Below are positions 6,187 through 32,300 of a DNA stretch of 64,000 nt, piece by piece. The stretch covers positions 1 through 64,000 of the forward strand of contig JAOZFN010000017.1 of the NCBI GenBank assembly GCA_027492205.1, given 5' to 3'. The stretch comes from Thermoproteota archaeon. Lineage in GTDB: Archaea; Korarchaeota; Korarchaeia; Korarchaeales; Korarchaeaceae. Within the stretch, counting starts at the first letter, position 1, and every line of letters begins with the position of its first letter. The position numbers were made by a program, and so were the translations under genes. The notes under the pieces were generated by a model. It was not told the DNA's origin. It worked only from the letters and a program-made list of their open reading frames with translations, and did no database searches.

Positions 6187-7107
6187 TCAAACGATGACCT
6201 CCCAGGCGGACGACAGCCTGAGCGCGGCCAACGCCGGTCTGGCGACTCCCCTCTCGCTCGATCGAGCCATCTCCTGGATGCTGCCGACGTCTGCAGTCCG
6301 ACCTGCGAGCACGTCGGACAGCGCCTGGCAGCTGGACCTATCGGGATCGTTATTTAGGGCCCTCCTGACCTCGACGGCGGCGCCCAAGAGCCAGAGCCCC
6401 AAGAGTTCGCCTCTTATGAGTTCCTCTGCGCCCAGCCGCGCGGCCTCCTCCACGTCGGCATCCTCCAGGGAGGCCATGGCTCTGAAGGCCTCCACCAGAT
6501 CGGGGCGGTCCGCGGCGGCCTTCCGGGCCGGCAGCCCCCTGAGCTCCAGGCCGGCCAGCCTCAGGTAGTCCCGAGGGTAGCTGCAGAGGAGCCCGTGGCC
6601 GGCGCCGGCCCAGCCGGCTGCCACCTCCAGCTCCGCCAGACCCGTCTCCTGACAGACCGAGGCGGCGGCCAGGCAGCGAAGGAGCCTTGGGAGGATCTCT
6701 CGCGCGGCCTCCTCGCCCAGCTCGGACCTGACCGACACCTTCCCGGTGATGAAGACGTTCACCCTCAAGTCGGCGCTCTCTCCTATCACCATCTGCCCCC
6801 TAAGGGCGGTCCTCGTCCTCAGACCCAGGGCGGGGAGCGTCAGCGAGGCGGCCTCGTGATCCAGCGGCCTGAACCTGGCGCCCTCCGGGGAGAGGGAGAG
6901 GACCACCTCCGCCAGGGCGGGCCTGGACGGACACGGCCTGACCACCCTGAGCCTGGCGGGCCTGGCTATCCAGGGGGGGCCGATCGAGGGCCTGGCGAAC
7001 GGGCACTCCACGTCCCGCCCTCCCAGCTCCATGTGGCGCGCGGCCGAAGAGCACGACGGAAACCCGCAGAGGCCGCAATCGTAGCCCGGAAGACCCACCC
7101 AGCTCAT
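6187..7107 (-). CDS. Putative Fe-S-binding protein (FeS domain, COG4871-like)
   Basis: N-terminal LPGYDCGLCGFPSC...CPF cluster motif, plus RPCP and VFITGKVSVR. Confidence 0.65.
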   Translation of the reverse strand: MSWVGLPGYDCGLCGFPSCSSAARHMELGGRDVECPFARPSIGPPWIARPARLRVVRPCPSRPALAEVVLSLSPEGARFRPLDHEAASLTLPALGLRTRTALRGQMVIGESADLRVNVFITGKVSVRSELGEEAAREILPRLLRCLAAASVCQETGLAELEVAAGWAGAGHGLLCSYPRDYLRLAGLELRGLPARKAAADRPDLVEAFRAMASLEDADVEEAARLGAEELIRGELLGLWLLGAAVEVRRALNNDPDRSSCQALSDVLAGRTADVGSIQEMARSSERGVARPALAALRLSSAWEVIV

Positions 7108-7164
7108 GGCTCCATTGGCGAGGGGGTTGGCACATTTTTAACGCCAGCCCGCCGCGCGGGCCCG

Positions 7165-8844
7165 ATGACAGAGGCCGCCCTAGACTTCTTGAGGGCACAG
7201 GGGCCGCTGATCCACCTGGGGATTGCCTCCGCCCTCGCCCTTGCGTACGCCAAGAGGAGGTCCATCGTCATCCTGCCTGCCGTGATGTTCGCCTCCCTGA
7301 TCTCTCTCCTCCTCGGGGTCGAAGCCCACGAGAGCCTGCTGGCCATAGCGCCCATAGCGGCGGCCCTGATAGTGTTCATCGCCGGCCTGGAGCTGGACAT
7401 CGAGGTGTTCATCGCCGAGAAGGAGAGGCTCTTCCTCATGTTCACGATAGAGGCCGCAATACTCCTGAGCCTTCTGTACCTCCTCGCAACCAGCTTTGAG
7501 GGACCCACGCCCTTCGCTGTGATAGCCCTGATGATAGCCTCCAACGAGTACTTCGTCCTAGAGCTGAAGAAGCTGGGGAAGGAGAGGATCGCCAACGTGG
7601 GGATAGCCCTCTCGGTCATGGAGGACTCCCTCGCGGTGGCCCTGGTCTCGTTCGGGGTATTGGCCGGAGGGGGTGAGCTCACCTCCATAAGGCCGGAGGT
7701 GATAGACCTCCTGGCGATCACCGCCCTCCTGGTGCCGATCCTCTACCTGGCCGCGAAGCCCTTCGACAGGTTCCTGAAGGCCACCGACAGGCTCGACGCC
7801 AGGGTGCTGACAACCCTGCTCTACCTGTTCCTCCTGATCTCTATAGGGCACAGCCTCCACGTGCCCGAGGCGATCCCGGTCTTCATAGGCTCGATAATGC
7901 TCTCTCTCGGTGGTTTCGACAGGGAGACCTTCCACGTCGTCGAGGGCTACCTCATGCTGGCGCTCCTGGGCTTTGTCTCCTCGTTCCCCTTCAACCTCCG
8001 CGCCCAGGTGGACCTGGGGACCTTCCTCCTGGCCGTCGCATACGGCCTGATATGGGCGCTCCTCGCCTGCGCGCTCAGGGGGCTCATCCTATTCTCGTCC
8101 GCGATCCTGGCCGGTTTCGAGCCCCAAGACGCTGCCGAGATGGCAATGGTCCTCGCCAACACCGGTGAATTCGGCCTGATAGCCATCGCAGGGATGCTGA
8201 ACCAGCTCCCCCCTGTAGTTGCGCTGGCCGCAATGTTCGCCTACGGCTTTAACCTGACCCTGGTGTCGGAGGTCACGAAGAGGGTCCACGCGTTGGCCGA
8301 GAGGGCTATAGGGGGTCTGCCGCAGGTGGTTAGGTCCTTCCTGGAGGAGATAAGCGAGGGCGCCAACAGGGTCGTGGAGGACGTGGAGTTCAGGCGCTGG
8401 ATGTACGGCTCGCTCTTCAGGCTGGTGGTCATCTACCTGATACTCAGCGCCTCGAAGCTCCTCGTTGCTCAAACCCCCATGCTGCAGTTTTTGCTCACCG
8501 TACTCTCCATGGGGGTCTTCATCTCCACGATCCAGCACACCTACACCTACTTCGAGCGGAGGATAATGACCGTCATAGCCAGGGGGGCGGCCTCCCTGAT
8601 ACTGGCGCTCAGGCTGCTGTTCACGTACCTAGCGCTGGCTCCCGTGATGAGCGTCCTGGAGGGCCTGCTGTTCACGGTCTCAAAGGTGGGCGGGCCCGAG
8701 ATCTCGCTCTCCTCACCCATCGCGATTCTCGGAATGTTCGCCGTCGCGTACCTGATCAACAAGGCGAGCAGGGGTGTCGTGGGGAGGCTGGTTCCGGAGA
8801 GACCGGCGATGAGGGGGGAGCCTCCCCCGGTGAAGCCCACTTGA
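7165..8844 (+). CDS. Cation:proton antiporter (CPA2/Kef-like) with extra C-terminal TM segments
   Basis: FIAGLELD, SVMEDSLAV and NTGEFGLI motifs; many TM helices; ATG at 7165 follows TTTTTAA. Confidence 0.8.
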   Translation: MTEAALDFLRAQGPLIHLGIASALALAYAKRRSIVILPAVMFASLISLLLGVEAHESLLAIAPIAAALIVFIAGLELDIEVFIAEKERLFLMFTIEAAILLSLLYLLATSFEGPTPFAVIALMIASNEYFVLELKKLGKERIANVGIALSVMEDSLAVALVSFGVLAGGGELTSIRPEVIDLLAITALLVPILYLAAKPFDRFLKATDRLDARVLTTLLYLFLLISIGHSLHVPEAIPVFIGSIMLSLGGFDRETFHVVEGYLMLALLGFVSSFPFNLRAQVDLGTFLLAVAYGLIWALLACALRGLILFSSAILAGFEPQDAAEMAMVLANTGEFGLIAIAGMLNQLPPVVALAAMFAYGFNLTLVSEVTKRVHALAERAIGGLPQVVRSFLEEISEGANRVVEDVEFRRWMYGSLFRLVVIYLILSASKLLVAQTPMLQFLLTVLSMGVFISTIQHTYTYFERRIMTVIARGAASLILALRLLFTYLALAPVMSVLEGLLFTVSKVGGPEISLSSPIAILGMFAVAYLINKASRGVVGRLVPERPAMRGEPPPVKPT

Positions 8845-8889: not shown

Positions 8890-10584
8890 ATGTCGAGAAG
8901 GGCCGCGGCGCTTGTGCTGCTGGTTGCGGCCGCCGCCCCCTCCCTGTCGGTGGCCGCGGAGGACCTATCCTATCGGATCGCCCGGGAGTGGATCGTCCTG
9001 CAGATCGAGCGGGACGGGACGATCCTGCTCTCCTACAACCTGACCGTGGCCGTGGACTCTGGAGCGATCAGGCGCTTCGTCAGGGTCGGCATGCCCGTCG
9101 GGAGCTTCGAGGTGCTGGAGGCCCGGGAGCTGGAGACGGGGTTGGACGTGGGCTACGACGAGATCAGGGAGGGAGACTACTACGCCGTGGAGCTCCACCC
9201 CAGCGGCCCAATAGAGGCCGGGCAGTCGAGGACCTTCACGTTCACCGCGCTGGTCGAGGACTTCGTCAATCCCGACGAGACCAACCCGGGTAACGTGGGG
9301 GTGCAGTTCACCCCCTCCTGGTTTGACGACGCGCCGGTGGAGGACCTCAGGCTCCTGGTGGTGCTTCCCGAGGGCGTGGATCCGTCGGAGGTCAGGAACA
9401 ACCCGGACTACGACAACCTGATGAACCTAGACGGGAGGGTCGCCCTCTACTGGGAGAGACGCAACCTGTACCCGGGGGAGCGGTTCGAGGTCGGGGTCAG
9501 CTTCCCATCGCAGTACGTGGGGCATTACGTGGAGGCGCCGGGCTCCAGGGGGATACTCTACAGGATCGGCCAGATCCTGGGCGTCCTGGTCATGCTGGCC
9601 CCGTTCGCGCTCGTCGCGGCGTACGTCCTCTACACGCGGACCAAGAAGTATCTGGGAGAGTATGAGCCCCCGTGGATTGGGATCGAGGCCTTGGGCCCGC
9701 AGAAGCAGCTGAACCCACCCGAGGCCGCCTACCTGATGCTCCTGGAGTCTGGCGGGAGGGAGTTCTCCAGGGTGATAACGGTGGCGCTGGTAGAGGGGCT
9801 CAAGTTGGGCGTCCTTGAGCTTGAGAGCCTGAGACCTCTGAGGCTGAGGGTGAGGGACGACGGGGGCCCTCTGAAGTACTACCTGAGGAGGCTCGTCCGC
9901 TGCGTCCAGGACGACGGGTCCCTGGACGGGGACTGCCTCGCGAGGCTGATCAAGGCCGTACACAGGGCCACCTACCGCAAGCTGTCCGGCTTCTCTAGGA
10001 AGGAGACTGTGGACTTCTACCGCAAGAAGATCGCGGAGGGTTGGAGGGAGCTCCAATCTGCACCTCCCGAGAAGAAGAGGGAGGTCCTGGACGAGTGGAT
10101 CGAGTGGCTCATGATCGACGAGAACTTCTTCGAGAGGCTCAGGGAGGCCATGAGGGCCCCCGAACCGGCTCAGGTCGTTCTGCCGAGCGACTGGTGGATG
10201 TACAGGATCTGGCGGTGGACGTGGCCCGGCTGGGACGGGCACGTCGTCGTGACAAGGCCGGCCCCCGGCGCTCCCCGAGTCGAGCCCGTGATGGAGCCCA
10301 GGACCGTCACCAGGATTGAGCGGAGGGCAGAGGGGCCGGTCGTCTCCCTGGAGAAGGCCGCCGACGAGGTGGCCAGGGGGGTCGAGTCAGTCTTCGACTC
10401 CGTGGCGGACAGCGCGGAGGGACTGGCGGACAGGGTGGCCAGGCTCATAGCGCCGGAGCGGACCAGGCCGAGGAGCAGGACCAGATCCGCCGTGAGTTCC
10501 TGCGTCTGCGCCTGCGTGTCCTGTGCGTGCGCCTGCGCCTGCGTCTCCTGCGCCTGCGCATGCGCCGGAGGGGGTGCTGGCTGA
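8890..10584 (+). CDS. DUF2207-like membrane protein with C-terminal poly-Cys tail (candidate radical-SAM substrate)
   Basis: Signal peptide, beta-rich ectodomain (LQIERDGT...LLVVLPEG...FEVGVSFP), one TM helix, LNPPEAAYL, ends CVCACVSCACACACVSCACACAGGGAG. Confidence 0.75.
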   Translation: MSRRAAALVLLVAAAAPSLSVAAEDLSYRIAREWIVLQIERDGTILLSYNLTVAVDSGAIRRFVRVGMPVGSFEVLEARELETGLDVGYDEIREGDYYAVELHPSGPIEAGQSRTFTFTALVEDFVNPDETNPGNVGVQFTPSWFDDAPVEDLRLLVVLPEGVDPSEVRNNPDYDNLMNLDGRVALYWERRNLYPGERFEVGVSFPSQYVGHYVEAPGSRGILYRIGQILGVLVMLAPFALVAAYVLYTRTKKYLGEYEPPWIGIEALGPQKQLNPPEAAYLMLLESGGREFSRVITVALVEGLKLGVLELESLRPLRLRVRDDGGPLKYYLRRLVRCVQDDGSLDGDCLARLIKAVHRATYRKLSGFSRKETVDFYRKKIAEGWRELQSAPPEKKREVLDEWIEWLMIDENFFERLREAMRAPEPAQVVLPSDWWMYRIWRWTWPGWDGHVVVTRPAPGAPRVEPVMEPRTVTRIERRAEGPVVSLEKAADEVARGVESVFDSVADSAEGLADRVARLIAPERTRPRSRTRSAVSSCVCACVSCACACACVSCACACAGGGAG

Positions 10585-11921
10585 TGAGAGTCGGGGTAGG
10601 GAGAGATCCCAAGAGGAGCGCGCGCATGCTCGGCTTCGTGTACAGGGGCCAGAAGGTCCACCTGAGGGTCGATCCGTCCGGCGTCGGCGTGCTGGTGGTG
10701 GCCGCCAGGAGGTCCGCATACCTCAACAGGTCAGGGACGCTGTTCGCCCAGTCATTCCTGAGCGGGGAGCCGCCGGAGACCGCGGTGGGTAGGGCCGTGA
10801 GGGCATTCAAGGGACTCACGAGGGAGAGGGCAGAGAGGGACTACAGAGACTTCGTCAGGAGGCTCAAGGCCTTCCTAGACGCCGAGGAGGTCTGCCCCGT
10901 CACCGACCTCGGGTTCGCGAGGGTCGACCCCCTCTCGGTCAGGACCTCGGCGCCCTTCAGGATGGACCTCGCCCTCACCTACAGGTGCAACAACAGGTGC
11001 GTGCACTGCTACAGCGGGTCTCCCGAGCCAAAGCCCGAGATGAGCACAGAAGAGTGGAAGGAAGTCCTGCGGAGGCTGGAGAACCTTGGTGTACCCAACG
11101 TGGTCTTCACCGGGGGAGAGCCAACCCTGAGGGACGACCTGGTGGAGCTGGTGGCGGAGGCCCAGCGGCTGGGCCTGGTCGCCGGGCTGGTGACCAACGG
11201 CAGGAGGCTGGCGGACAGGTCCTTCGCTGAGGCCCTAGTGAGAGCCGGGCTGGACTACGTCCAGGTCACGCTTGAGTCCCACAGGCCGGAGGTCCACGAA
11301 AGGATAACTCGGGCCCCTGGGAGCTGGAGCGAGACGGTAGAGGGTATCAGGAACATCGCTGACCTCGGGATATACGTGGACGTCAACGCCACCCTCAGCA
11401 GGCTGAACGTGGGCGACGTCGTCGGGCTCGTCGAGCTGGCCCACGAACTCGGGGCCGACGCAGTTTCCGCGAACCGCCTCATATACAGCGGTCGGGGCCT
11501 TGAGGTCAGGGAGTGGTTCGAGCCCTCGCCGGGGGAGACGCTGGTTGCCCTGGAGGAGATGGCGGACGCCGCGGCCGAGAGGGATCTGGAGTTCAGGTGG
11601 TACGGCGTCACTAGGTACTGCGAGCTGAACCCGCTGGAGCATCAGCTCGGGGTGAAGTTCTGCTCGGCCTGCTCGATAACCATGGCCGTCGAGCCCGACG
11701 GTACCGTGATACCCTGCCAGAGCTACTACGAGCCCCTCGGCCACATCCTCAGGGACGACTGGGGCTCCATATGGGATCACTCGCTCTGCGAGGGGATAAG
11801 GTCGAGGAGCTTCGCTGGACCCGCGTGCAGGTCCTGCCCGTTCTTCAGCGCGTGCGGGGGAGGCTGCCCCCTGGAGGCCAGGGTCAGGCCCTACCCCGAG
11901 TCTCCGCCGGAGGTAGCCTGA
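10584..11921 (+). CDS. Radical SAM/SPASM enzyme with N-terminal PqqD/RRE-like domain
   Basis: CNNRCVHC, FTGGEPTLR and VTNG; SPASM CSAC...PDGTVIPC...CRSC...CGGGCP; N-terminal LNRSG...AERDYRDFVRRL; TGATG overlap with the upstream gene. Confidence 0.9.
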   Translation: MRVGVGRDPKRSARMLGFVYRGQKVHLRVDPSGVGVLVVAARRSAYLNRSGTLFAQSFLSGEPPETAVGRAVRAFKGLTRERAERDYRDFVRRLKAFLDAEEVCPVTDLGFARVDPLSVRTSAPFRMDLALTYRCNNRCVHCYSGSPEPKPEMSTEEWKEVLRRLENLGVPNVVFTGGEPTLRDDLVELVAEAQRLGLVAGLVTNGRRLADRSFAEALVRAGLDYVQVTLESHRPEVHERITRAPGSWSETVEGIRNIADLGIYVDVNATLSRLNVGDVVGLVELAHELGADAVSANRLIYSGRGLEVREWFEPSPGETLVALEEMADAAAERDLEFRWYGVTRYCELNPLEHQLGVKFCSACSITMAVEPDGTVIPCQSYYEPLGHILRDDWGSIWDHSLCEGIRSRSFAGPACRSCPFFSACGGGCPLEARVRPYPESPPEVA

Positions 11922-11995: not shown

Positions 11996-12405
11996 TCAGG
12001 GTGTGAACTCGGCCACGTGCCTCACCACTCCCAGGCTCGACGCCTTTCTGATGAGCCTCTCGTCGGCCGTGTACAGGACGGTCTCGTTTATCAGGGCGAG
12101 CGCCACGTAAGAGGCGCCGTATATTGTCAGACCCTTTCTCATGGCGATCTCTACGGTCCTCTCCGCATATCTCCCCGCGAGGTCATGCAGGGTGAACTGA
12201 TAGCCCTAGATGACCGAGGAGACCTCCCTCAGCTCATCCTCCCAAAGCGCCCGGAGTACTTCAGGGCGTTGAGGACCTCCATTGGCAGGAGATACGGGGC
12301 GAGGAGGTCTACTAGGCCGTCGACGTAGGCGTCCCTGAGCCTGAGGGGCTCTCCCGTGTACTCCTCCCTAACGAACCACTTCACCACCACGGAGGCGTCT
12401 ACCAC
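11996..12405 (-). pseudogene. vapC: Inactivated VapC/PIN toxin
   Basis: VVDASVVVKWF...EVLNALKY, then a frameshift near 12242, in-frame TAG at 12206-12208, and continuation IYGASYVALA...LYTADERL to TGA at 11996. Confidence 0.8.
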
Positions 12406-12686
12406 CGCCTCGCCTCTCTCCAGCGCCTTATCTCCTCCACCCCGCTCCAAACGGGCACCTCCCTGCGGAGCGCGTCGGTACGAATGGCGGCCGCCCGCAT
12501 GGCGGACCTGTCCTTCCGGCGCATCATCGCCTCCTCCCGCCTGACGACCTCTTCTATGGCCCTCCTCACCACGGCGCTCCAGTTGACGTGCCTCAACCTG
12601 TCCATCCTCTCCTTGAGCCTTCTATCAACCCTGAAGCTGATTACGACGCTCAATTCCCTCGCCACATTGTATACACCTCTCGTCAT
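12399..12686 (-). CDS. vapB: VapB-type ribbon-helix-helix antitoxin
   Basis: VVISFRVDRRLKERM...VNWSAVVRRAIEE...VEEIRRWRE; overlaps the PIN gene; true start may be slightly downstream. Confidence 0.8.
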   Translation of the reverse strand: MTRGVYNVARELSVVISFRVDRRLKERMDRLRHVNWSAVVRRAIEEVVRREEAMMRRKDRSAMRAAAIRTDALRREVPVWSGVEEIRRWREARRW

Positions 12687-13039: not shown

Positions 13040-14395
13040 TTGAAGGGGCCAGTAAGGATCACTTACGACAGGGGGACCGTGCTCGTCTGGGGGGCAAGGT
13101 CGGCCCCCTACTGCGCCTGGGATCCGAGGGTCGGGGCCCTGAGGGCCATGGCCCACAGGTACAGGGAGGTCAGGGAGGCGCTCCCTCACGCCGTGGACGA
13201 GGTGATGGATCCCCTCCCGGTGCCGCCGCTAAGGTCGGACATCAGGCTGAAGCCGTTCCAGAGGGAGGCGCTCGACGCCTGGATGGAGAGGCGGAGGGGG
13301 ATAGTCGTCCTCCCCACAGGGGCGGGGAAGACCTTCGTGGCCCTGAAGGCGGTGGAGGAGTTGAGCGTCTCCACGCTGGTGGTGGTTCCAACGCTCCCGC
13401 TCCTCACCCAGTGGGCCGAGAGGATCTCGGAGGCATTTGGCGTGGAGGTTGGCGTGGTCGGCGGCGGCAGGTCGGAGCTGAGGGGCATAACCGTCATCAC
13501 GTACGACTCGGCCTACCTCAGGGCCCCGGAGATAGGGAACAGGTTCCTCCTCGCGGTGTTCGACGAGGTCCACCACCTGGCGGCCGAGGGATACATCGAG
13601 ATAGCGGAGAGCCTGGCCTCCCCCTACAGGATGGGCCTGACGGCCACCCTTGAGAGGGAGGACGGGAGGCACGTCCACCTGCTGACCCGCGTGGGAGGGG
13701 TGGTCTACAGGCTCGGCCCCAGGGAGCTTGCCGGAGAGCACCTCGCGGAATTCGACACCGTGAGGGTGAGGGTGAGGCTGACCGAGGACGAGAGGAGGGA
13801 GTACGAGAGGCTGATCTCCGAGTACAGGGAAGGCCTGAGGAGGGCGGGGCTGAGCGTCGGCTCCCTCGAGGACTTCAGGAGGCTGGTGATGAGGAGCGGG
13901 TCCAGCATGGCGGCAAGGAGAGCCCTCATCAGCTGGAATAGGGCGAGGAAGCTCGCGATAAACGCCAAGAGGAAGCTTGAGGTCCTGGAGGAGTTGCTGG
14001 AGAGCCACAGGGACGACAAGGTGATCATATTCACGGAGTACAACGAGATGGCCGAGGAGGTCAGCAGGAGGTTCCTGATTCCTCTGATAACCCACCGGAC
14101 AAGTCAGAGGGAGAGACAGGAGATACTATCCGCCTTCAGGACGGGAGGGTTGACCAAGGTGGTCACGTCCAAGGTGCTGGACGAGGGCGTGGACGTCCCC
14201 GACGCGAGGGTGGGCATCATACTCGGCGGCACCGGGAGCAGGAGGGAGTTCATCCAGAGGCTCGGGAGGATACTGAGGAAGAGGGAGGGCAAGAGGGCGG
14301 TCCTGTACGAGGTCGTAACCGCGGGCACCTCGGAAGTCAGGGCCTCCGCCAGGAGGAGGAGGGCCCTGGACCCCGGAGGTCAGGGAGGCGGCTAG
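13040..14395 (+). CDS. xpb: XPB/Rad25-like SF2 DNA helicase
   Basis: LPTGAGKT, DEVHH, GLTATLERED, VLDEGVDVPDA, QRLGRILR. Confidence 0.9.
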   Translation: MKGPVRITYDRGTVLVWGARSAPYCAWDPRVGALRAMAHRYREVREALPHAVDEVMDPLPVPPLRSDIRLKPFQREALDAWMERRRGIVVLPTGAGKTFVALKAVEELSVSTLVVVPTLPLLTQWAERISEAFGVEVGVVGGGRSELRGITVITYDSAYLRAPEIGNRFLLAVFDEVHHLAAEGYIEIAESLASPYRMGLTATLEREDGRHVHLLTRVGGVVYRLGPRELAGEHLAEFDTVRVRVRLTEDERREYERLISEYREGLRRAGLSVGSLEDFRRLVMRSGSSMAARRALISWNRARKLAINAKRKLEVLEELLESHRDDKVIIFTEYNEMAEEVSRRFLIPLITHRTSQRERQEILSAFRTGGLTKVVTSKVLDEGVDVPDARVGIILGGTGSRREFIQRLGRILRKREGKRAVLYEVVTAGTSEVRASARRRRALDPGGQGGG

Positions 14396-15975
14396 TGGGG
14401 GGTGGTGCCTTGCTCCCGTCTCAGCTGCTGAGGGCGAGGAGGTTCCGGGACAGGCTCACGCTGCGATGGGCCACCGGCGGGGGGGAGGAGCTGGCCCTCG
14501 CCAAGGAGCTGATATCCCAGTTCAGGCCAGGCCGCAGCCTGGCCGAGGTACACTCCGCCGTGGAGGAGATCGAGGAGGCCTACGGGGCCGCCGGGATAGA
14601 CTTCAAGCTGGTCAGGGGCCTCGCCCTGATCCTGGAGAGGAGGTGCTCCTTCGAGAGGCCCGAGACGAGGGTGAGCCCGGAGAGGGCGAGGCTCGCTGTC
14701 TACAGGGTCGTTAACAGGAGGTTCCACGGGTTCGCCTCCGGGGCCCAGAGGGAGGAGGCGCTGAGGCTCGCTGCAGACGAGCTGGGCGTGACGGTCGAGG
14801 AGCTCGAGGAGGCCTTGTGGGCCGACTCGGACGAGGCCCTCAGGCTCGCTGAAGCCGAACTGCCTGACCCGGAGGGCCTGCTCAGGGAGTACAACCTCTC
14901 CCTCCTCCAGACCGCACTCTTCAGGAGCGTGAGACTCACGGTAGAGACGGGATCGCCGGGCTGGCAGGTCAAGCGCCTGCTGAGGGCGGTCAAGGCCCTG
15001 GGCCTCATGTACACGGCGTCGAGGGTGGGAGGGGCCCTGAGGCTCGACGTCGACGGACCCGCCACGGTCCTCAAGATGACGACGCGATACGGAACGGCCC
15101 TGGCCAGGCTGGTGCCGAGGGTGGTCTCCATGGACGACTGGAGGATGTTCGCGTGGGTGGTCAGGGGGTCCGGGTCCTGGGAGGGGAGGCTGTCCCTGAG
15201 GCTCGAGGTGGACTCCTCCCATCGGAACCTATTCCCGGTCGCACGGGAGCCGGGGTGGGAGGTCGAGTACGACAGCTCGCTGGAGAGGGACTTCGCGATC
15301 GCCTGCTCCCTCGACGGGTGGAGGGTCGAGAGGGAGCCCGAGCCGCTCCTGGCTGGGAGGTCCGTCCTCATCCCCGACTTCCTCATACAGAAGGGGCCGG
15401 TCAGGGTTTACGTGGAGGTCATGGGGTTCTGGACGCCCCAGTACATCAGGAGGAAGCTAGAGAAGCTCAAGGAGGTTGAGAGACCCGTTCTGGTTGTCGT
15501 CAAGAGGGACCTGGCGTGCGCCCCCGTGGAGGAGGTCGCCCGGGACGTCCTCTACTTCGAGGGGAGGGGGGACGTGAAGCCCCTCCTCGAGAGGCTCAGG
15601 GAGATAGAGGAGAGGGAGTGGAATAGGGTGGTCTCCTCTGGGGGTCTGAGTGGCCGCCTCAGACCGGAGGGAGACCTGGTTAGCCTGAGGGACCTCGCCG
15701 AGGGGCACGGCCTGACGCCGGAGCAGGCTCTTGAGATTGCGGATCTCAGGGGTTATCGGGTCGTGGGGGATCACCTCATCTCCGAGAACCTCCTCTCGAG
15801 GGCCGCCGAGATTCTCCTCAGCCGGAGGCCGGGCACCGTCGGGCAGGCGAGGGCCGCTCTGGAGGAGATTGGGGTCGCGGGGGAGCTGGCCGCCCCCGTG
15901 ATAGAGGCGGTCGGGCTGAAGGTCAGGTGGAGGTCCCTGGAGGAGGACGACGCCGAGGTGGTGTACCCGCCCTAG
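14395..15975 (+). CDS. bax1: DUF790 / Bax1 endonuclease
   Basis: YNLSLLQT, DGPATV...TRYG, YDSSLE...REPEPL...IPDF...VEVMGFWTPQY; adjacent to xpb. Confidence 0.85.
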   Translation: MGGGALLPSQLLRARRFRDRLTLRWATGGGEELALAKELISQFRPGRSLAEVHSAVEEIEEAYGAAGIDFKLVRGLALILERRCSFERPETRVSPERARLAVYRVVNRRFHGFASGAQREEALRLAADELGVTVEELEEALWADSDEALRLAEAELPDPEGLLREYNLSLLQTALFRSVRLTVETGSPGWQVKRLLRAVKALGLMYTASRVGGALRLDVDGPATVLKMTTRYGTALARLVPRVVSMDDWRMFAWVVRGSGSWEGRLSLRLEVDSSHRNLFPVAREPGWEVEYDSSLERDFAIACSLDGWRVEREPEPLLAGRSVLIPDFLIQKGPVRVYVEVMGFWTPQYIRRKLEKLKEVERPVLVVVKRDLACAPVEEVARDVLYFEGRGDVKPLLERLREIEEREWNRVVSSGGLSGRLRPEGDLVSLRDLAEGHGLTPEQALEIADLRGYRVVGDHLISENLLSRAAEILLSRRPGTVGQARAALEEIGVAGELAAPVIEAVGLKVRWRSLEEDDAEVVYPP

Positions 15976-29282: not shown

Positions 29283-29672
29283 ATGGGCGGGTTGACGGAT
29301 ATAGGGGAGAAACCGAGTCGAGAGATAAGGCAGAGGGTGATCGAGGCCCTGAAGGGCACCTTCGACCCGGAGATCCCGGTGAACGTCTACGACCTGGGGC
29401 TCGTGTACAGGATCGACGTGGATGAGGAGGGGAACGTGGAGGTCGACATGACGATGACGGCCCCCGGATGCCCGGTGGCGGGGATGGTAATCGCCATGGC
29501 CGAGGCTGCCATCAGGGAGGCCGTGGGTCCCGGCAGGAGGGTGAAGGTGAACCTCGTGTGGGACCCGCCCTGGACCCCGGAGAGGGTGACCCCCCAGGGC
29601 AGGGAGAGGCTGAGGGAGATCTACGGCTACGATGTGGTTGGGGAGTGGATCAAGAGGGCCAAGAGGGGGTGA
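29283..29672 (+). CDS. DUF59/SufT metal-sulfur cluster assembly factor
   Basis: DPEIPVNVYDLGLVY...MTMTAPGCPVA...VNLVWDPPWTP. Confidence 0.9.
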   Translation: MGGLTDIGEKPSREIRQRVIEALKGTFDPEIPVNVYDLGLVYRIDVDEEGNVEVDMTMTAPGCPVAGMVIAMAEAAIREAVGPGRRVKVNLVWDPPWTPERVTPQGRERLREIYGYDVVGEWIKRAKRG

Positions 29673-30085
29673 TCCGGTTGGGGGAGCCGGACAGAGATTC
29701 GAGGTTGGTCGCCTACATCCTTGCGAGGCTCGGCTGCACCCACCCCTTCAGGGTATCCCGAATCCTCCTGCTGGCAGATTGGAGGGCCGAGGAGGTCGGA
29801 CTGGGGAGGCTCACGGAGGGGCTGAGCTACGTGGCGGAGCCCTACGGGTTTTACGTCGAGGGCCTGCAAGGAGTCCTGGAGCGCCTGGAGCGATCTGGGT
29901 GTTTGAGGCGCAGAGAGGAGGAGAGGTGCCTAGAGTACACGTGCGCCGAGCCTGGCCTCATGCCCCAAGAGCGCGAGGTCCTTGACGAGGTTATCCGAGA
30001 AGTCTACGACCTGAGCGACAGGGAGCTGAACCGGCTGGTGACCCGAGACGAGAGATACGTCGAGCTGACTGGCAGGGGGCGGTAG
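29669..30085 (+). CDS. Panacea/SocA-like (DUF4065-like) small protein
   Basis: LVAYIL...VSRILLLADW...YVAEPYGFYV...EVLDEVIREVYDLS; GTGA overlap with the upstream gene. Confidence 0.55.
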   Translation: MIRLGEPDRDSRLVAYILARLGCTHPFRVSRILLLADWRAEEVGLGRLTEGLSYVAEPYGFYVEGLQGVLERLERSGCLRRREEERCLEYTCAEPGLMPQEREVLDEVIREVYDLSDRELNRLVTRDERYVELTGRGR

Positions 30086-30087
30086 AG

Positions 30088-30960
30088 TTGATGGTCTCGG
30101 TGTCGGGCGGGAAGGGGGGTACGGGCAAGTCGACGGTGGCCGTTAACCTGGCCGCGCTCCTCTCGCGGGATCTCAGGCTGGTGCTGGCTGATCTAGACGT
30201 GGAGAACCCCAACGACCACATCCTCTTGGGGGCCGAACTCGCGGGCGAGCGGCCCGTCAACATCATGCTGCCCTTCGTGAACTACCAGAAGTGCGTCAAG
30301 TGCGGGGCCTGCGGGAGGGTGTGCGACACCGGAGCCATGCTGATCTCGCCTGACGGCCTCCCCTACGTGATACCCAGGCTCTGCAGCGGGTGCAGGTCCT
30401 GCTACTTCGCGTGTCCCGTGGACGCCATCGTGGAGGGGAAGAGGACGATCGGGTACACCTACCTGTCGGAACTCGAGCTCGGCGAGTCCAAGATCACGCT
30501 GGTCACCGGATCCCTGAGGGAGGGAGAGGAGCACACTCCGCCTGTCGTCCTGGCCGCCAGGCGCAGGGCGCTCTCCGTCGAGGCGGACCTGCACCTGGTG
30601 GACACCTCCGCGGGGACGAGCAACTCCGTCGCGGCGGCGGTGGACGGGTCTAGGCTCCTCATAGCAGTCACGGAGCCCACCCCTCTGGGCCTGCACGACC
30701 TCGACCTGATTCTGGAGATGGCCCAGACCCTGGGGATGGAGGCATGGGTCGTCATAAACAGGGCCGGAATAGGACCGGAAGACGACCACGTCAGGCTGGT
30801 GAGGGAGAGGGGGGCCGAGATAGTCGCCCGGATACCCTACTCCAGGAGGGTGGTGGAGTCATACATCCGGGGGGTCCCGATCGTGCTCCACAGTCCCAAC
30901 TCTCCGGAGGCGGAGGAGTTCAGGCGGCTGGCAGAGATGGTGAGGGGGGTGGTTTCGTGA
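30088..30960 (+). CDS. MinD-superfamily P-loop ATPase with inserted ferredoxin (COG1149)
   Basis: GKGGTGKST, DLDVENPN, CVKCGACGRVC, CSGCRSCYFACP, VTEPTPLGLHD. Confidence 0.9.
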   Translation: MMVSVSGGKGGTGKSTVAVNLAALLSRDLRLVLADLDVENPNDHILLGAELAGERPVNIMLPFVNYQKCVKCGACGRVCDTGAMLISPDGLPYVIPRLCSGCRSCYFACPVDAIVEGKRTIGYTYLSELELGESKITLVTGSLREGEEHTPPVVLAARRRALSVEADLHLVDTSAGTSNSVAAAVDGSRLLIAVTEPTPLGLHDLDLILEMAQTLGMEAWVVINRAGIGPEDDHVRLVRERGAEIVARIPYSRRVVESYIRGVPIVLHSPNSPEAEEFRRLAEMVRGVVS

Positions 30961-31937
30961 TCGAGATAGCGATAGCCAGCGGGAAGGGCGGGGTCGGGAA
31001 GTCTACCGTCTCCGCCACGATAGTCCTGGCCGCGGCGAGATCCGGAAAGAGCGTGATCGCCGTCGACGCCGACGCGGACGCGCCAAACCTGCACCTGATA
31101 TTCGGGGTCAGGGAGTGGGAGTGGGAGAAGTCCTACGTCGAGAGCAAGGTCGCCGAGATAGTCCAGTCGCTCTGCACGAGGTGCGGCAGGTGCCGGGAGG
31201 TCTGCCCCTACGAGGCCATCCACGTTGACGAAGGGGGGAGGTTTGCGGTGAACCAGGTCATCTGCGAGGGGTGCCTGACGTGCTCCCTCGTGTGCCCGGA
31301 GAGGGGGGCCATAAGGCTGCTCTCCGCCGAGTCGGGGAGGCTCAGGAGGACGACCACTAGCTACGGCTTCCCGCTCGTCTCCGCGAGGCTTAACCCGGGG
31401 AGGCCGAACTCCGGCAAGCTGGTGACCGAAGAGAAGTCAATGGCCAAGGAGCTTGCCTCGCAGGACTCCCTGGTGGTGGTGGACTCCGCGGCAGGGATAG
31501 GGTGCCAGGTGGTCTCGAGCCTGGCCGGGGCCAACGCTGCCATACTGGTGGCCGAGCCAACCCCGGCGAGCTTCGCCGCGCTGAAGAGAGTCTTCAGGCT
31601 CACGAGGCACTTCATGCAGCCCGCCGGGCTGGTCATCAACAAGCACGACGTCAACCCCGGGGTGACGGAGGAGATGGAGGCGTTCGCCCGGAGGAAGAAC
31701 ATTGACCTGCTGGGCCGGATCCCCTATGACGATGCCATTCCCAAGAGCATGGCCGTGATGAAGCCGGTGGTCGAGGCCTTTCCGGACAGCCCCGCGTCGA
31801 GGGCCCTGATGGAAGTCGCGGAGAGGGTCATGGCAATAGTCGACGACTGGCAGTCGTGGTTCACGAGGTTCAGGCCGAGAGAGCCCGAGCCGTACCGGCC
31901 CATCATAATAAGGCCGGAGGGGCTTCCGGGGGATTGA
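30957..31937 (+). CDS. Second MinD-superfamily P-loop ATPase with inserted ferredoxin (COG1149)
   Basis: SGKGGVGKST, DADADAPNL, CTRCGRCREVC, CEGCLTCSLVCP, NSGKLV, GIGCQV. Confidence 0.9.
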   Translation: MIEIAIASGKGGVGKSTVSATIVLAAARSGKSVIAVDADADAPNLHLIFGVREWEWEKSYVESKVAEIVQSLCTRCGRCREVCPYEAIHVDEGGRFAVNQVICEGCLTCSLVCPERGAIRLLSAESGRLRRTTTSYGFPLVSARLNPGRPNSGKLVTEEKSMAKELASQDSLVVVDSAAGIGCQVVSSLAGANAAILVAEPTPASFAALKRVFRLTRHFMQPAGLVINKHDVNPGVTEEMEAFARRKNIDLLGRIPYDDAIPKSMAVMKPVVEAFPDSPASRALMEVAERVMAIVDDWQSWFTRFRPREPEPYRPIIIRPEGLPGD

Positions 31938-31946
31938 CGAGGGGGG

Positions 31947-32300
31947 ATGCTCGTGGGAACGGTGAAGGTGGGTCTGGCCGTGGAGGACGACTCTGGTCTG
32001 GACTCAAGGGTGAGTTCCAGGTTTGGGAGGGCCCCGTTCCTCGCCATAGTCGAGCTGGAGGACGGGGAAATCGGGGGAGTGAGAGTGGTGGAGAACCCCG
32101 GCGCCTCGGCCAGGAGCGGCGCGGGGATCAAGGCAGTCCAGAGGCTGCTGGAGGAGGGCGTCAGGGTAGCGGTCGCTGGCGCCTTCGGACCGAACGCCAT
32201 GACGGCGCTGGAGGAGCTGGGGATAGAGACCGTAGAGCTCGCTGGTGTCTCGGTCGAGGAGGCCCTGCAGAGGATCCGGACGAGGCTACAGGGCCAATGA
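31947..32300 (+). CDS. NifB/NifX family protein (COG1433)
   Basis: SRFGRAPF...ENPG...GAGIKAVQ...GAFGPNA...GI. Confidence 0.9.
   Translation: MLVGTVKVGLAVEDDSGLDSRVSSRFGRAPFLAIVELEDGEIGGVRVVENPGASARSGAGIKAVQRLLEEGVRVAVAGAFGPNAMTALEELGIETVELAGVSVEEALQRIRTRLQGQ

Follow-up and report, generated by a model that had tools for sequence, protein, structure and literature searches.

The window analysed in this study is a stretch of 64,000 nt from a Thermoproteota archaeon of the Korarchaeaceae (assembly GCA_027492205.1, contig JAOZFN010000017.1, positions 1 to 64,000 of the forward strand). It carries a gene for a 564-aa membrane protein (8890..10584, + strand), which is a divergent DUF2207-like protein and ends in a block of cysteine and alanine residues (the Cys/Ala tail). 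The following gene (10584..11921, + strand) encodes a 445-aa radical S-adenosylmethionine (SAM) enzyme with a SPASM domain and an N-terminal domain that resembles the recognition element (RRE) of enzymes acting on peptides that are made by ribosomes and modified after translation (RiPPs). We think it probable that these genes form a two-gene maturation cassette, in which the tail of the membrane protein is the target of the translationally coupled enzyme. The very strong linkage of the two genes and the protein-level constraint on both the Cys and the Ala residues of the tail carry this proposal.

Linkage of the two genes and conservation of the tail

The stop codon TGA of the membrane protein gene (10582-10584) shares one base with the start codon ATG of the enzyme gene (10584-10586), giving the overlap TGATG (10582..10586, + strand). 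Related loci were collected by scanning species-representative genomes once, with the tail motif as the seed and tblastn against the membrane protein as confirmation. The scan yielded 80 loci, and at least 515 further tail-pattern matches lie outside this sample. The archaeal loci came from Thermoproteota, Bathyarchaeia, Methanocella, Methanomicrobia, Thermococci, Theionarchaea, Halobacteria and Promethearchaeota, and the bacterial ones from Chloroflexota, Flexilinea and Bacillota; the locus nearest to the window (L001, 91% identity) belongs to a Thermoproteota archaeon. When the window enzyme was used as the tblastn query, an ortholog with 37-90% identity was found in 77 of the 80 loci, and at 68 loci it was a complete ORF on the same strand starting -46 to +55 nt after the stop of the tail gene. 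The match was directly downstream and cut by the contig end at three loci (L015, L045, and L063), downstream without a clean ORF at two (L072 and L078), and 444 nt downstream at one (L069). The enzyme gene was adjacent upstream on the same strand in L026, and lay on the opposite strand within about 0.5-2.7 kb in L047 and L075.

ORFs from 81 sources were clustered all against all. The tail protein was present in 81 of them, the enzyme in 75, and a small gene described below in 58, and the next family reached 25. Because other flanking families were rarely common to the loci, the pair is seen to stay together while the neighbourhood changes. A few copies were broken: L071:8114-9666 showed a frameshift inside the tail together with a truncated enzyme ORF, and truncated enzyme ORFs were also seen in L052:9602-10162, L062:9597-10685, and L078:8802-9200.

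The tail pattern CxCxCxCxxCxCxCxxG was kept in 79 of 81 sequences, the other two being L071, whose tail is frameshifted, and L075, which has a variant tail. All seven Cys columns and five of the six Ala columns were invariant. At the DNA level, TGT and TGC were used at near 50:50, all four Ala codons occurred, and Ser was encoded by both TCN and AGY, in loci whose G+C content ranged from 32 to 64%. Since synonymous codons vary freely while the residues stay fixed, the tail is under protein-level constraint, on Cys and Ala both. The most telling detail is that Ala is as fixed as Cys, which demands more than metal ligation. An origin of the tail as a DNA microsatellite or repeat artefact was ruled out by the same free synonymous change.

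Other candidate substrates and partners were sought around the pair. Clustering of ORFs of 20-95 aa within 1.5 kb of the pair revealed no conserved short ORF; the clusters were frame shadows of known genes only, none of them in the window and none Cys-rich. This agreed with the first-pass annotation, which had seen no separate precursor gene. When proteins of fewer than 310 aa were searched with the tail region, 180 matches resulted. In the 120 of these that were listed, the block stood, as judged by eye, at the very end and after the pre-tail segment of the family; stand-alone short precursors bearing the tail were rejected, as these proteins looked like C-terminal pieces of the membrane protein family. 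Many of the short tail-bearing fragments came from contigs of 1-3 kb. A short, separately encoded precursor with its leader at the N-terminus and its core at the C-terminus, as sactipeptides and ranthipeptides have it, was not seen here, and the Cys block ends a 564-aa protein.

The small gene found in 58 of the 81 sources encodes about 115 aa and is located directly upstream of the tail gene, usually overlapping its start (e.g., L008:7630-7980, L071:7648-8007, and L080:7637-7993). Its product has two transmembrane (TM) helices and a C-terminal Zn ribbon ending in a conserved EEPKW. A hidden Markov model search did not find this gene in the window or in L001-L006, which excludes it as a partner or substrate common to all loci. 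In Bathyarchaeia, Chloroflexota and an Asgard record, however, its product probably belongs to the system as a third component. In a tail protein of Theionarchaea (L061:4097-5737), residues 321-348 within the cytoplasmic part matched the Zn ribbon PF24460 (DUF7575, E = 3.2e-7). This suggests that the L061 protein is a fusion counterpart of the separate gene, and the position of the ribbon connects this module with the system's cytoplasmic part.

Architecture of the membrane protein and the enzyme

The C-terminus of the membrane protein reads ...SAVSSCVCACVSCACACACVSCACACAGGGAG. The whole protein contains 12 Cys among 564 residues (2.1%), and 10 of these Cys lie within residues 538-558 (nt 10501-10563). 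The length, the 10 Cys in 21 residues and the TGATG overlap given by the first-pass annotation were all seen in the ORF list and translation. Pfam (E ≤ 0.01) and NCBIfam scans of the protein gave no match, and its AlphaFold2 (AF2) model had a mean predicted local distance difference test score (pLDDT) of 80.8. The N-terminal hydrophobic segment (8890..8958, residues 1-23) is signal-peptide-like, with an AF2 helix at residues 2-15 and a hydropathy segment at 5-23. It is followed by a predicted extracellular beta-sandwich (8968..9507, residues 27-206, pLDDT 92-98), in which D129, N132, G134 and W188 are among the invariant residues of the homolog alignment. A single TM helix (9553..9648, residues 222-253 in the AF2 model), with a hydropathy peak of 2.57 at residues 229-247, precedes the basic sequence TRTKK. 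The next part is a predicted cytoplasmic helical domain with a small beta-hairpin (9715..10239, residues 276-450, pLDDT mostly 87-96), and E266, L268, G269, E278, P316, W385 and W406 are conserved in the cytoplasmic part. Thus the signal peptide, ectodomain and single TM helix that had been read from the sequence were matched, as predictions, by the model and by hydropathy. The protein is predicted to be a type-I single-pass protein, and its tail to be cytoplasmic, because a signal-like N-terminus is combined with one TM helix that is followed by TRTKK.

Before the tail lies a conserved helix (10348..10446, residues 487-519), which is a candidate leader-like recognition segment. It was modelled as helices 487-508 and 512-519 with a pLDDT of about 80, and A491, E499 and E510 showed a conservation of at least 90%. 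The variable basic linker behind it (10447..10500, residues 520-537) is R-rich here, P/H/K-rich in Bathyarchaeia and G/S-rich in bacteria. From residue 523 the pLDDT was below 50, and residues 523-564 were modelled as disordered. The tail itself (10501..10581, residues 538-564), the proposed substrate core, consists of three CxC blocks (3 + 4 + 3 Cys) parted by V-S and is built of Cys, Ala, Val and Ser up to the final AGGGAG. The bacterial-type tails have shorter (CA)n runs which end in GGGR and are preceded by Gly/Ser-rich linkers.

A word-based search with words from the first 500 residues, the tail excluded, gave 38 relatives from Korarchaeota, Thermoprotei and Bathyarchaeia, whose bodies were 28-45% identical to the query except for four close relatives. 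Nearly the same Cys block closed 36 of them, with at least seven Cys in the last 40 residues, and the remaining two carried the block internally. In a whole-length profile search of 1.84 billion representatives, 1079 proteins reached E ≤ 1e-3, and E ≤ 1e-30 was reached by 287. The tail was thus recovered by both searches although neither was based on it. Among the best 150 matches the (CA)n tail was C-terminal in 127, internal in 2 and absent from 21, which were mostly fragments below 500 aa and included one with a 3-Cys version; P0278 and P0298, among the tail-less profile matches, have other C-termini. P0032, P0034, P0177 and P0184 have an internal Cys block and, behind it, a conserved extension some 90 aa long, which had no Pfam match and no likeness to the N-domain of the enzyme.

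Several lines of evidence relate the membrane protein to DUF2207. Its Atlas feature-space neighbours were DUF2207-named clusters (score 0.93-0.98), including clusters in which PF09972 occurs in 20-88% of members, and DUF2207 was named for one source among the relatives from the word-based search. The DUF2207 models (PF09972 and PF20990) gave no match at E ≤ 0.01 for the window protein, and in the relatives only sub-threshold hits were obtained, in 2 of 10 scanned (L007 N-domain, E = 0.0018; L080 C-domain, E = 0.036). Taken together, the sequence comparisons point to a distant relative of DUF2207, which is not a member by the rule of Pfam. The domain order is the same as in DUF2207 membrane proteins such as S. 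mutans SMU.243. In Foldseek, the best PDB matches of the membrane protein were ribophorin I/Ost1 subunits of the eukaryotic oligosaccharyltransferase; for 8b6l_O the E-value was 3.1e-10 over 448 columns, but the TM-score was 0.27 and the root-mean-square deviation 23 Å, and N-domains of M1 aminopeptidases (a generic beta-sandwich) scored nearly as well. A distant tie of DUF2207-like proteins to ribophorin I over window positions 8968-10239 is possible and is mentioned as a lead only.

The enzyme encoded by 10584..11921 has three parts. The radical SAM core (10974..11432, + strand, Pfam stretch residues 131-283) matched PF04055 with E = 4e-30 and 105.6 bits, against a cut-off of 29.5 bits. Its CxxxCxxC motif (nt 10986-11009, residues 135-142) provides C135, C139 and C142, which were invariant in 26 of 26 orthologs, and the AF2 beta/alpha core had a pLDDT above 90. 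The SPASM domain (11619..11867, + strand) matched PF13186 (E = 2e-7, 31.7 bits, cut-off 21.5 bits) and was matched in all 26 orthologs. It has seven conserved Cys (346, 360, 378, 415, 418, 424, and 428), and some orthologs, not the window protein, have an eighth near the C-terminus; judged from this Cys pattern, the domain should hold two auxiliary [4Fe-4S] clusters. The CxxxCxxC and SPASM Cys patterns noticed in the first reading were thus borne out by Pfam scores above the cut-offs and by conservation of the Cys in orthologs.

The N-terminal PqqD-like domain (10623..10880, + strand, residues 14-99) had likewise been called RRE-like. The RRE fold is winged-helix-like, about 80-90 aa long, and comprises a small beta-sheet followed by three helices. 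In the AF2 model of the enzyme (mean pLDDT 88.6, predicted TM-score 0.89) this domain has strands at 14-20, 23-29, 35-39 and 43-47 and helices at 49-59, 64-74 and 80-99, with a pLDDT of 81-95. Of 26 orthologs, 18 matched Pfam PqqD with an E-value of 0.01 or lower, the best being 1e-6, and positions 21-93 of the enzyme family profile matched the stand-alone RRE protein TfuB1 (E = 3.3e-4). With these results, and with a SuiB alignment of about 470 columns, we accept the N-domain as RRE-like by profile and by predicted fold.

Against solved relatives, the closest of which are peptide maturases, the family profile gave E-values of 1.1e-32 for SkfB, 1.8e-29 for PqqE, 1.4e-20 for SuiB, 9.8e-12 for CteB and 5.9e-10 for anSME, and it aligned to SkfB and PqqE through the SPASM region. 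Foldseek of the enzyme model gave SkfB at 1.9e-19 and SuiB, from the SuiB-SuiA complex 5v1t, at 2.7e-17 over 468 columns, which is the whole length. The top NCBIfam models were PqqE (6.2e-41), NirJ2 (5.8e-39) and MftC (3.5e-36). None of the best 25 NCBIfam models listed reached its cut-off for the window enzyme: the bits and cut-offs were 140.5 and 381 for PqqE, 134 and 500 for NirJ2, 125.1 and 265 for MftC, 103.3 and 300 for SkfB, and 71.6 and 850 for AlbA. Because every listed model stayed far under its curated cut-off, no existing equivalog family claims the enzyme.

Proposed reaction on the tail and alternative explanations

The first-pass annotation had proposed that the tail of the membrane protein itself is the substrate of the enzyme. 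Four points on which this could have failed were examined, namely the linkage of Cys-tailed homologs to RRE-radical SAM genes, the nature of the N-domain, the existence of a separate precursor and the predicted side of the membrane on which the tail lies, and each came out in favour of the proposal. In the cassette that we propose, docking of the RRE would take place at the pre-tail segment (the conserved helix or a motif before the linker), and the Cys/Ala block would thread into the active site of the enzyme. There, 5'-deoxyadenosyl radicals would take hydrogen atoms from the small residues between the cysteines, and Cys thiolates would capture the carbon radicals, so that a ladder of thioether crosslinks of the sactionine or ranthionine type would arise. 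By analogy with SkfB, CteB, QhpD and CrpC, the enzyme most likely forms thioethers. As the usual Asp, Glu and Asn acceptors are missing, this role would have to fall to the invariant Ala (or Val/Ser). We expect the product to stay attached to its membrane protein, on the inner side of the membrane, and not to be cut off or exported, since no protease or exporter is conserved beside the pair, the linker varies by clade, and four relatives carry the block internally.

A more far-reaching version of the proposal, which we put forward tentatively and hold to be possible though doubtful, is that a dedicated PqqE/SkfB-like enzyme turns the (Cys-Ala)n tail into a so far unseen protein-tethered structure, such as a rigid poly-thioether ladder or a protein-derived redox or metal cofactor, on a ribophorin-I-like receptor at the cytoplasmic membrane face. 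The system would be ancient and common to many lineages of anaerobic archaea and to some bacteria, and Ala would be invariant because it is the radical acceptor. If true, this would be the first thioether chemistry for which Cys and Ala in strict alternation form the template.

Several observations weigh against action of the enzyme on the tail. As the scan was seeded on the tail, linkage was tested from tail to enzyme only, and the tail genes of L007, L070 and L073 had no enzyme ortholog within their flanks of 3.9-8 kb. For the window enzyme, Pfam PqqD gave E = 0.0014 and 19.3 bits, which is under the cut-off of 23.4 bits. RiPP cores are usually variable, and an invariant core suits a cofactor-like or structural product, or an unmodified metal-binding site. 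The chemistry is a guess from relatives, and the topology is a prediction by the model. Moreover, the thioether acceptors of ranthipeptides are mostly of the Asp/Glu/Asn type, e.g., CxxD/Q in CrpA (PMC13692751), and the tail has none. Co-folding of the enzyme (alignment A2) with residues 478-564 of the membrane protein (alignment A1) gave a score of 0.01 and a mark of 0.32, which speaks neither for nor against binding.

The alternative that survives best, which we nevertheless regard as unlikely, is that the tail is an unmodified metal or Fe-S module (a metallothionein-like CxC array tethered to the membrane), and that the enzyme is docked there by its RRE or fed with electrons or metal and acts elsewhere, for instance on a membrane lipid or a small molecule. 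CxC arrays are typical metal ligands, and the tail core is invariant, unlike most RiPP cores. In addition, the Crp product is likewise suspected by its authors to bind metal (PMC13692751), and Gms is described as an archaeal SPASM enzyme that modifies membrane lipids (PMC11186832). The invariance of Ala argues the other way, as metal ligation alone needs no such thing. The N-domain of the enzyme is a beta/alpha, RRE-like domain, whereas that of Gms is described as a six-helix domain (PMC11186832), and GDGT-MAS aligned only over positions 126-228 of the enzyme profile; with this other domain architecture and partial match, a lipid-modifying identity (Gms/GDGT-MAS) was ruled out. In the characterised top relatives, moreover, what the RRE or peptide-binding part binds is the substrate itself, as in the SuiB-SuiA complex 5v1t.

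It is also conceivable, but quite unlikely, that the enzyme modifies the tail by a reaction other than thioether formation, such as anSME-like conversion of Cys to formylglycine, C-C crosslinking, epimerisation or formation of a PqqE/MftC-like redox cofactor. The top NCBIfam scores to PqqE, NirJ2 and MftC would fit this, anSME is a clear structural relative, and the invariant core of the tail resembles cofactor precursors of the PqqA and MftA type, which have a strongly conserved C-terminal core. However, the PqqE, NirJ2 and MftC models remained far under their cut-offs. Cys-rich cores beside RRE-SPASM enzymes have so far given thioethers (PMC13692751), although sequence cannot tell the candidate reactions apart.

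Release of the tail had been one option of the first-pass annotation, which saw a possible cleavage site in the Arg-rich linker and a tethered or a released peptide as the product. On this reading, the membrane protein would be a giant RiPP precursor that is cut at the basic linker to release or export a poly-thioether peptide. The order of leader-like helix, linker and core agrees with it, as does the Arg-rich linker in the clade of the window. Nevertheless, the linker is unconserved between clades, which told against the cleavage site. No protease or exporter family was conserved beside the pair in the ORF clustering of the 81 sources, and a cytoplasmic peptide without an exporter would have no obvious exit route. 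About 90 further residues follow the internal block in P0032, P0034, P0177 and P0184, and the core is invariant across phyla, unlike that of antimicrobial RiPPs. A released product found no support here, and we consider the giant precursor improbable.

Finally, a membrane-spanning or embedded tail, with a C-terminus that is not cytoplasmic, would fit the Kyte-Doolittle value of residues 538-556 (nt 10501-10557; 2.24 in a 19-residue window, above the TM threshold used), yet it is very improbable, as the AF2 model has the tail disordered (pLDDT below 50), the bacterial versions with 13-17 residues of (CA)n after Gly/Ser-rich linkers are too short for a membrane span, and coupling to a cytoplasmic Fe-S enzyme favours cytoplasmic exposure at least during modification. 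Owing to this hydrophobicity, automatic TM predictors may call a second membrane helix in the tail.

Relation to known systems and neighbouring genes

Radical SAM/SPASM maturases are known chiefly for the production of small secreted peptides, and whole-protein substrates are established in few cases (anSME, QhpD, and CrpC). The closest likeness to the proposed cassette is CrpC of Methanococcus voltae, an RRE-radical SAM-SPASM enzyme which installs thioethers on the 28.8-kDa Cys-rich protein CrpA (Dieter et al., 2026; 21 September 2026; PMC13692751). There, too, the enzyme gene lies beside the gene of a large Cys-rich protein whose Cys part is C-terminal, the product stays a protein, and the function of CrpA is described as possibly metal-related. 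However, CrpA is soluble and has ten 17-residue repeats with CxxQ/D, whereas the window protein is membrane-bound, has a single short (CA)n block and lacks Asp/Gln acceptors. CrpA is recognised at its N-terminus, whereas any recognition segment of the window protein has to precede its C-terminal block directly. The family to which CrpC is assigned, TIGR04463, was not among the best 25 NCBIfam matches of the window enzyme. The Crp screen, as described, covered high-Cys archaeal proteomes only and required at least 5% Cys for proteins above 250 aa, and it would miss the window protein because of its 2.1% Cys (12/564). QhpD, likewise an RRE-bearing radical SAM-SPASM enzyme, installs Cys thioethers on QhpC, the small subunit of quinohemoprotein amine dehydrogenase, which is kept in a functional complex (PMC13692751). 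In contrast to the window protein, QhpC is small and soluble, its leader is N-terminal and its links are of the Cys-Asp/Glu type, and it is neither a membrane protein nor a carrier of (CA)n.

SkfB (6efn), CteB (5wgg/5why) and the Lys-Trp crosslinking SuiB (5v1t) were the best sequence and fold matches and have the same three-part architecture, but their substrates are short, separately encoded and released peptides, and their identity to the window enzyme is only 14-21%. The systems PqqE/PqqD/PqqA and MftC/MftB/MftA share the highest NCBIfam scores and a PqqD-type recognition domain, while PqqA and MftA are short peptides that undergo C-C bond formation or decarboxylation, and the window tail is without a Glu/Tyr or Val/Tyr core. 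anSME (4k36-4k39) is a radical SAM-SPASM enzyme that modifies Cys in a full-size protein; it has no RRE, acts on one Cys/Ser in the sulfatase motif, and is only distantly similar (E = 5.9e-10).

The first-pass annotation had left it open whether such a pairing was undescribed. No description of the family was found in the literature searched, which covered SPASM enzymes, Cys-rich membrane proteins of archaea and archaeal RiPP mining, and no link of DUF2207 with radical SAM enzymes was found in a DUF2207 literature judged by title and abstract. Searches on the motif strings 'CACACAGGG', CACACAC and CxCxCxC returned DNA primers and unrelated papers only. Supplemental Data set 1 and Tables S3-S4 of the Crp study might list related clusters (PMC13692751). 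Modification of whole proteins by RRE-radical SAM-SPASM enzymes has experimental precedents, so the kind of system is known; what appears undescribed is a membrane protein as the class of substrate, a core in which Cys and Ala alternate, and this subfamily of enzymes. The cassette would add a widespread case, found in several archaeal phyla, Asgard archaea and some bacteria, in which an integral membrane protein would serve as substrate, the core shows nearly residue-for-residue conservation, and the acceptors, if any, would be alanines. It would also offer the first functional handle on the DUF2207-like family.

The G+C content of the window was 62-68%. Two proteins are encoded upstream of the tail gene (6187-8844): one of 306 aa on the - strand with the motif 'Putative Fe-S cluster' (PF04060, E = 2.6e-7), and a polytopic membrane protein, about 561 aa long, without a family match. 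These two genes are not considered part of the cassette because they are conserved only in L001 and L002, the loci closest to the window. Between the enzyme gene and a helicase gene, three ORFs of 48, 73 and 95 aa on the - strand (11996-12686) had no Pfam match at E ≤ 0.001, and by eye they resemble a small antitoxin and a split PIN-like toxin. At 13040-15975 an XPB-type helicase (ResIII, ERCC3_RAD25_C, and XPB_DRD) is followed by an overlapping DUF790 gene (E = 2.2e-103), which we take to be the archaeal XPB-Bax1 pair. Further Fe-S-related genes were located at 29283-32297 and 764-1336, comprising FeS_assembly_P, two ATPases of the MinD/ParA type that carry ferredoxin inserts, and two small proteins of the Nitro_FeMo-Co kind (dinitrogenase cofactor-binding-like).

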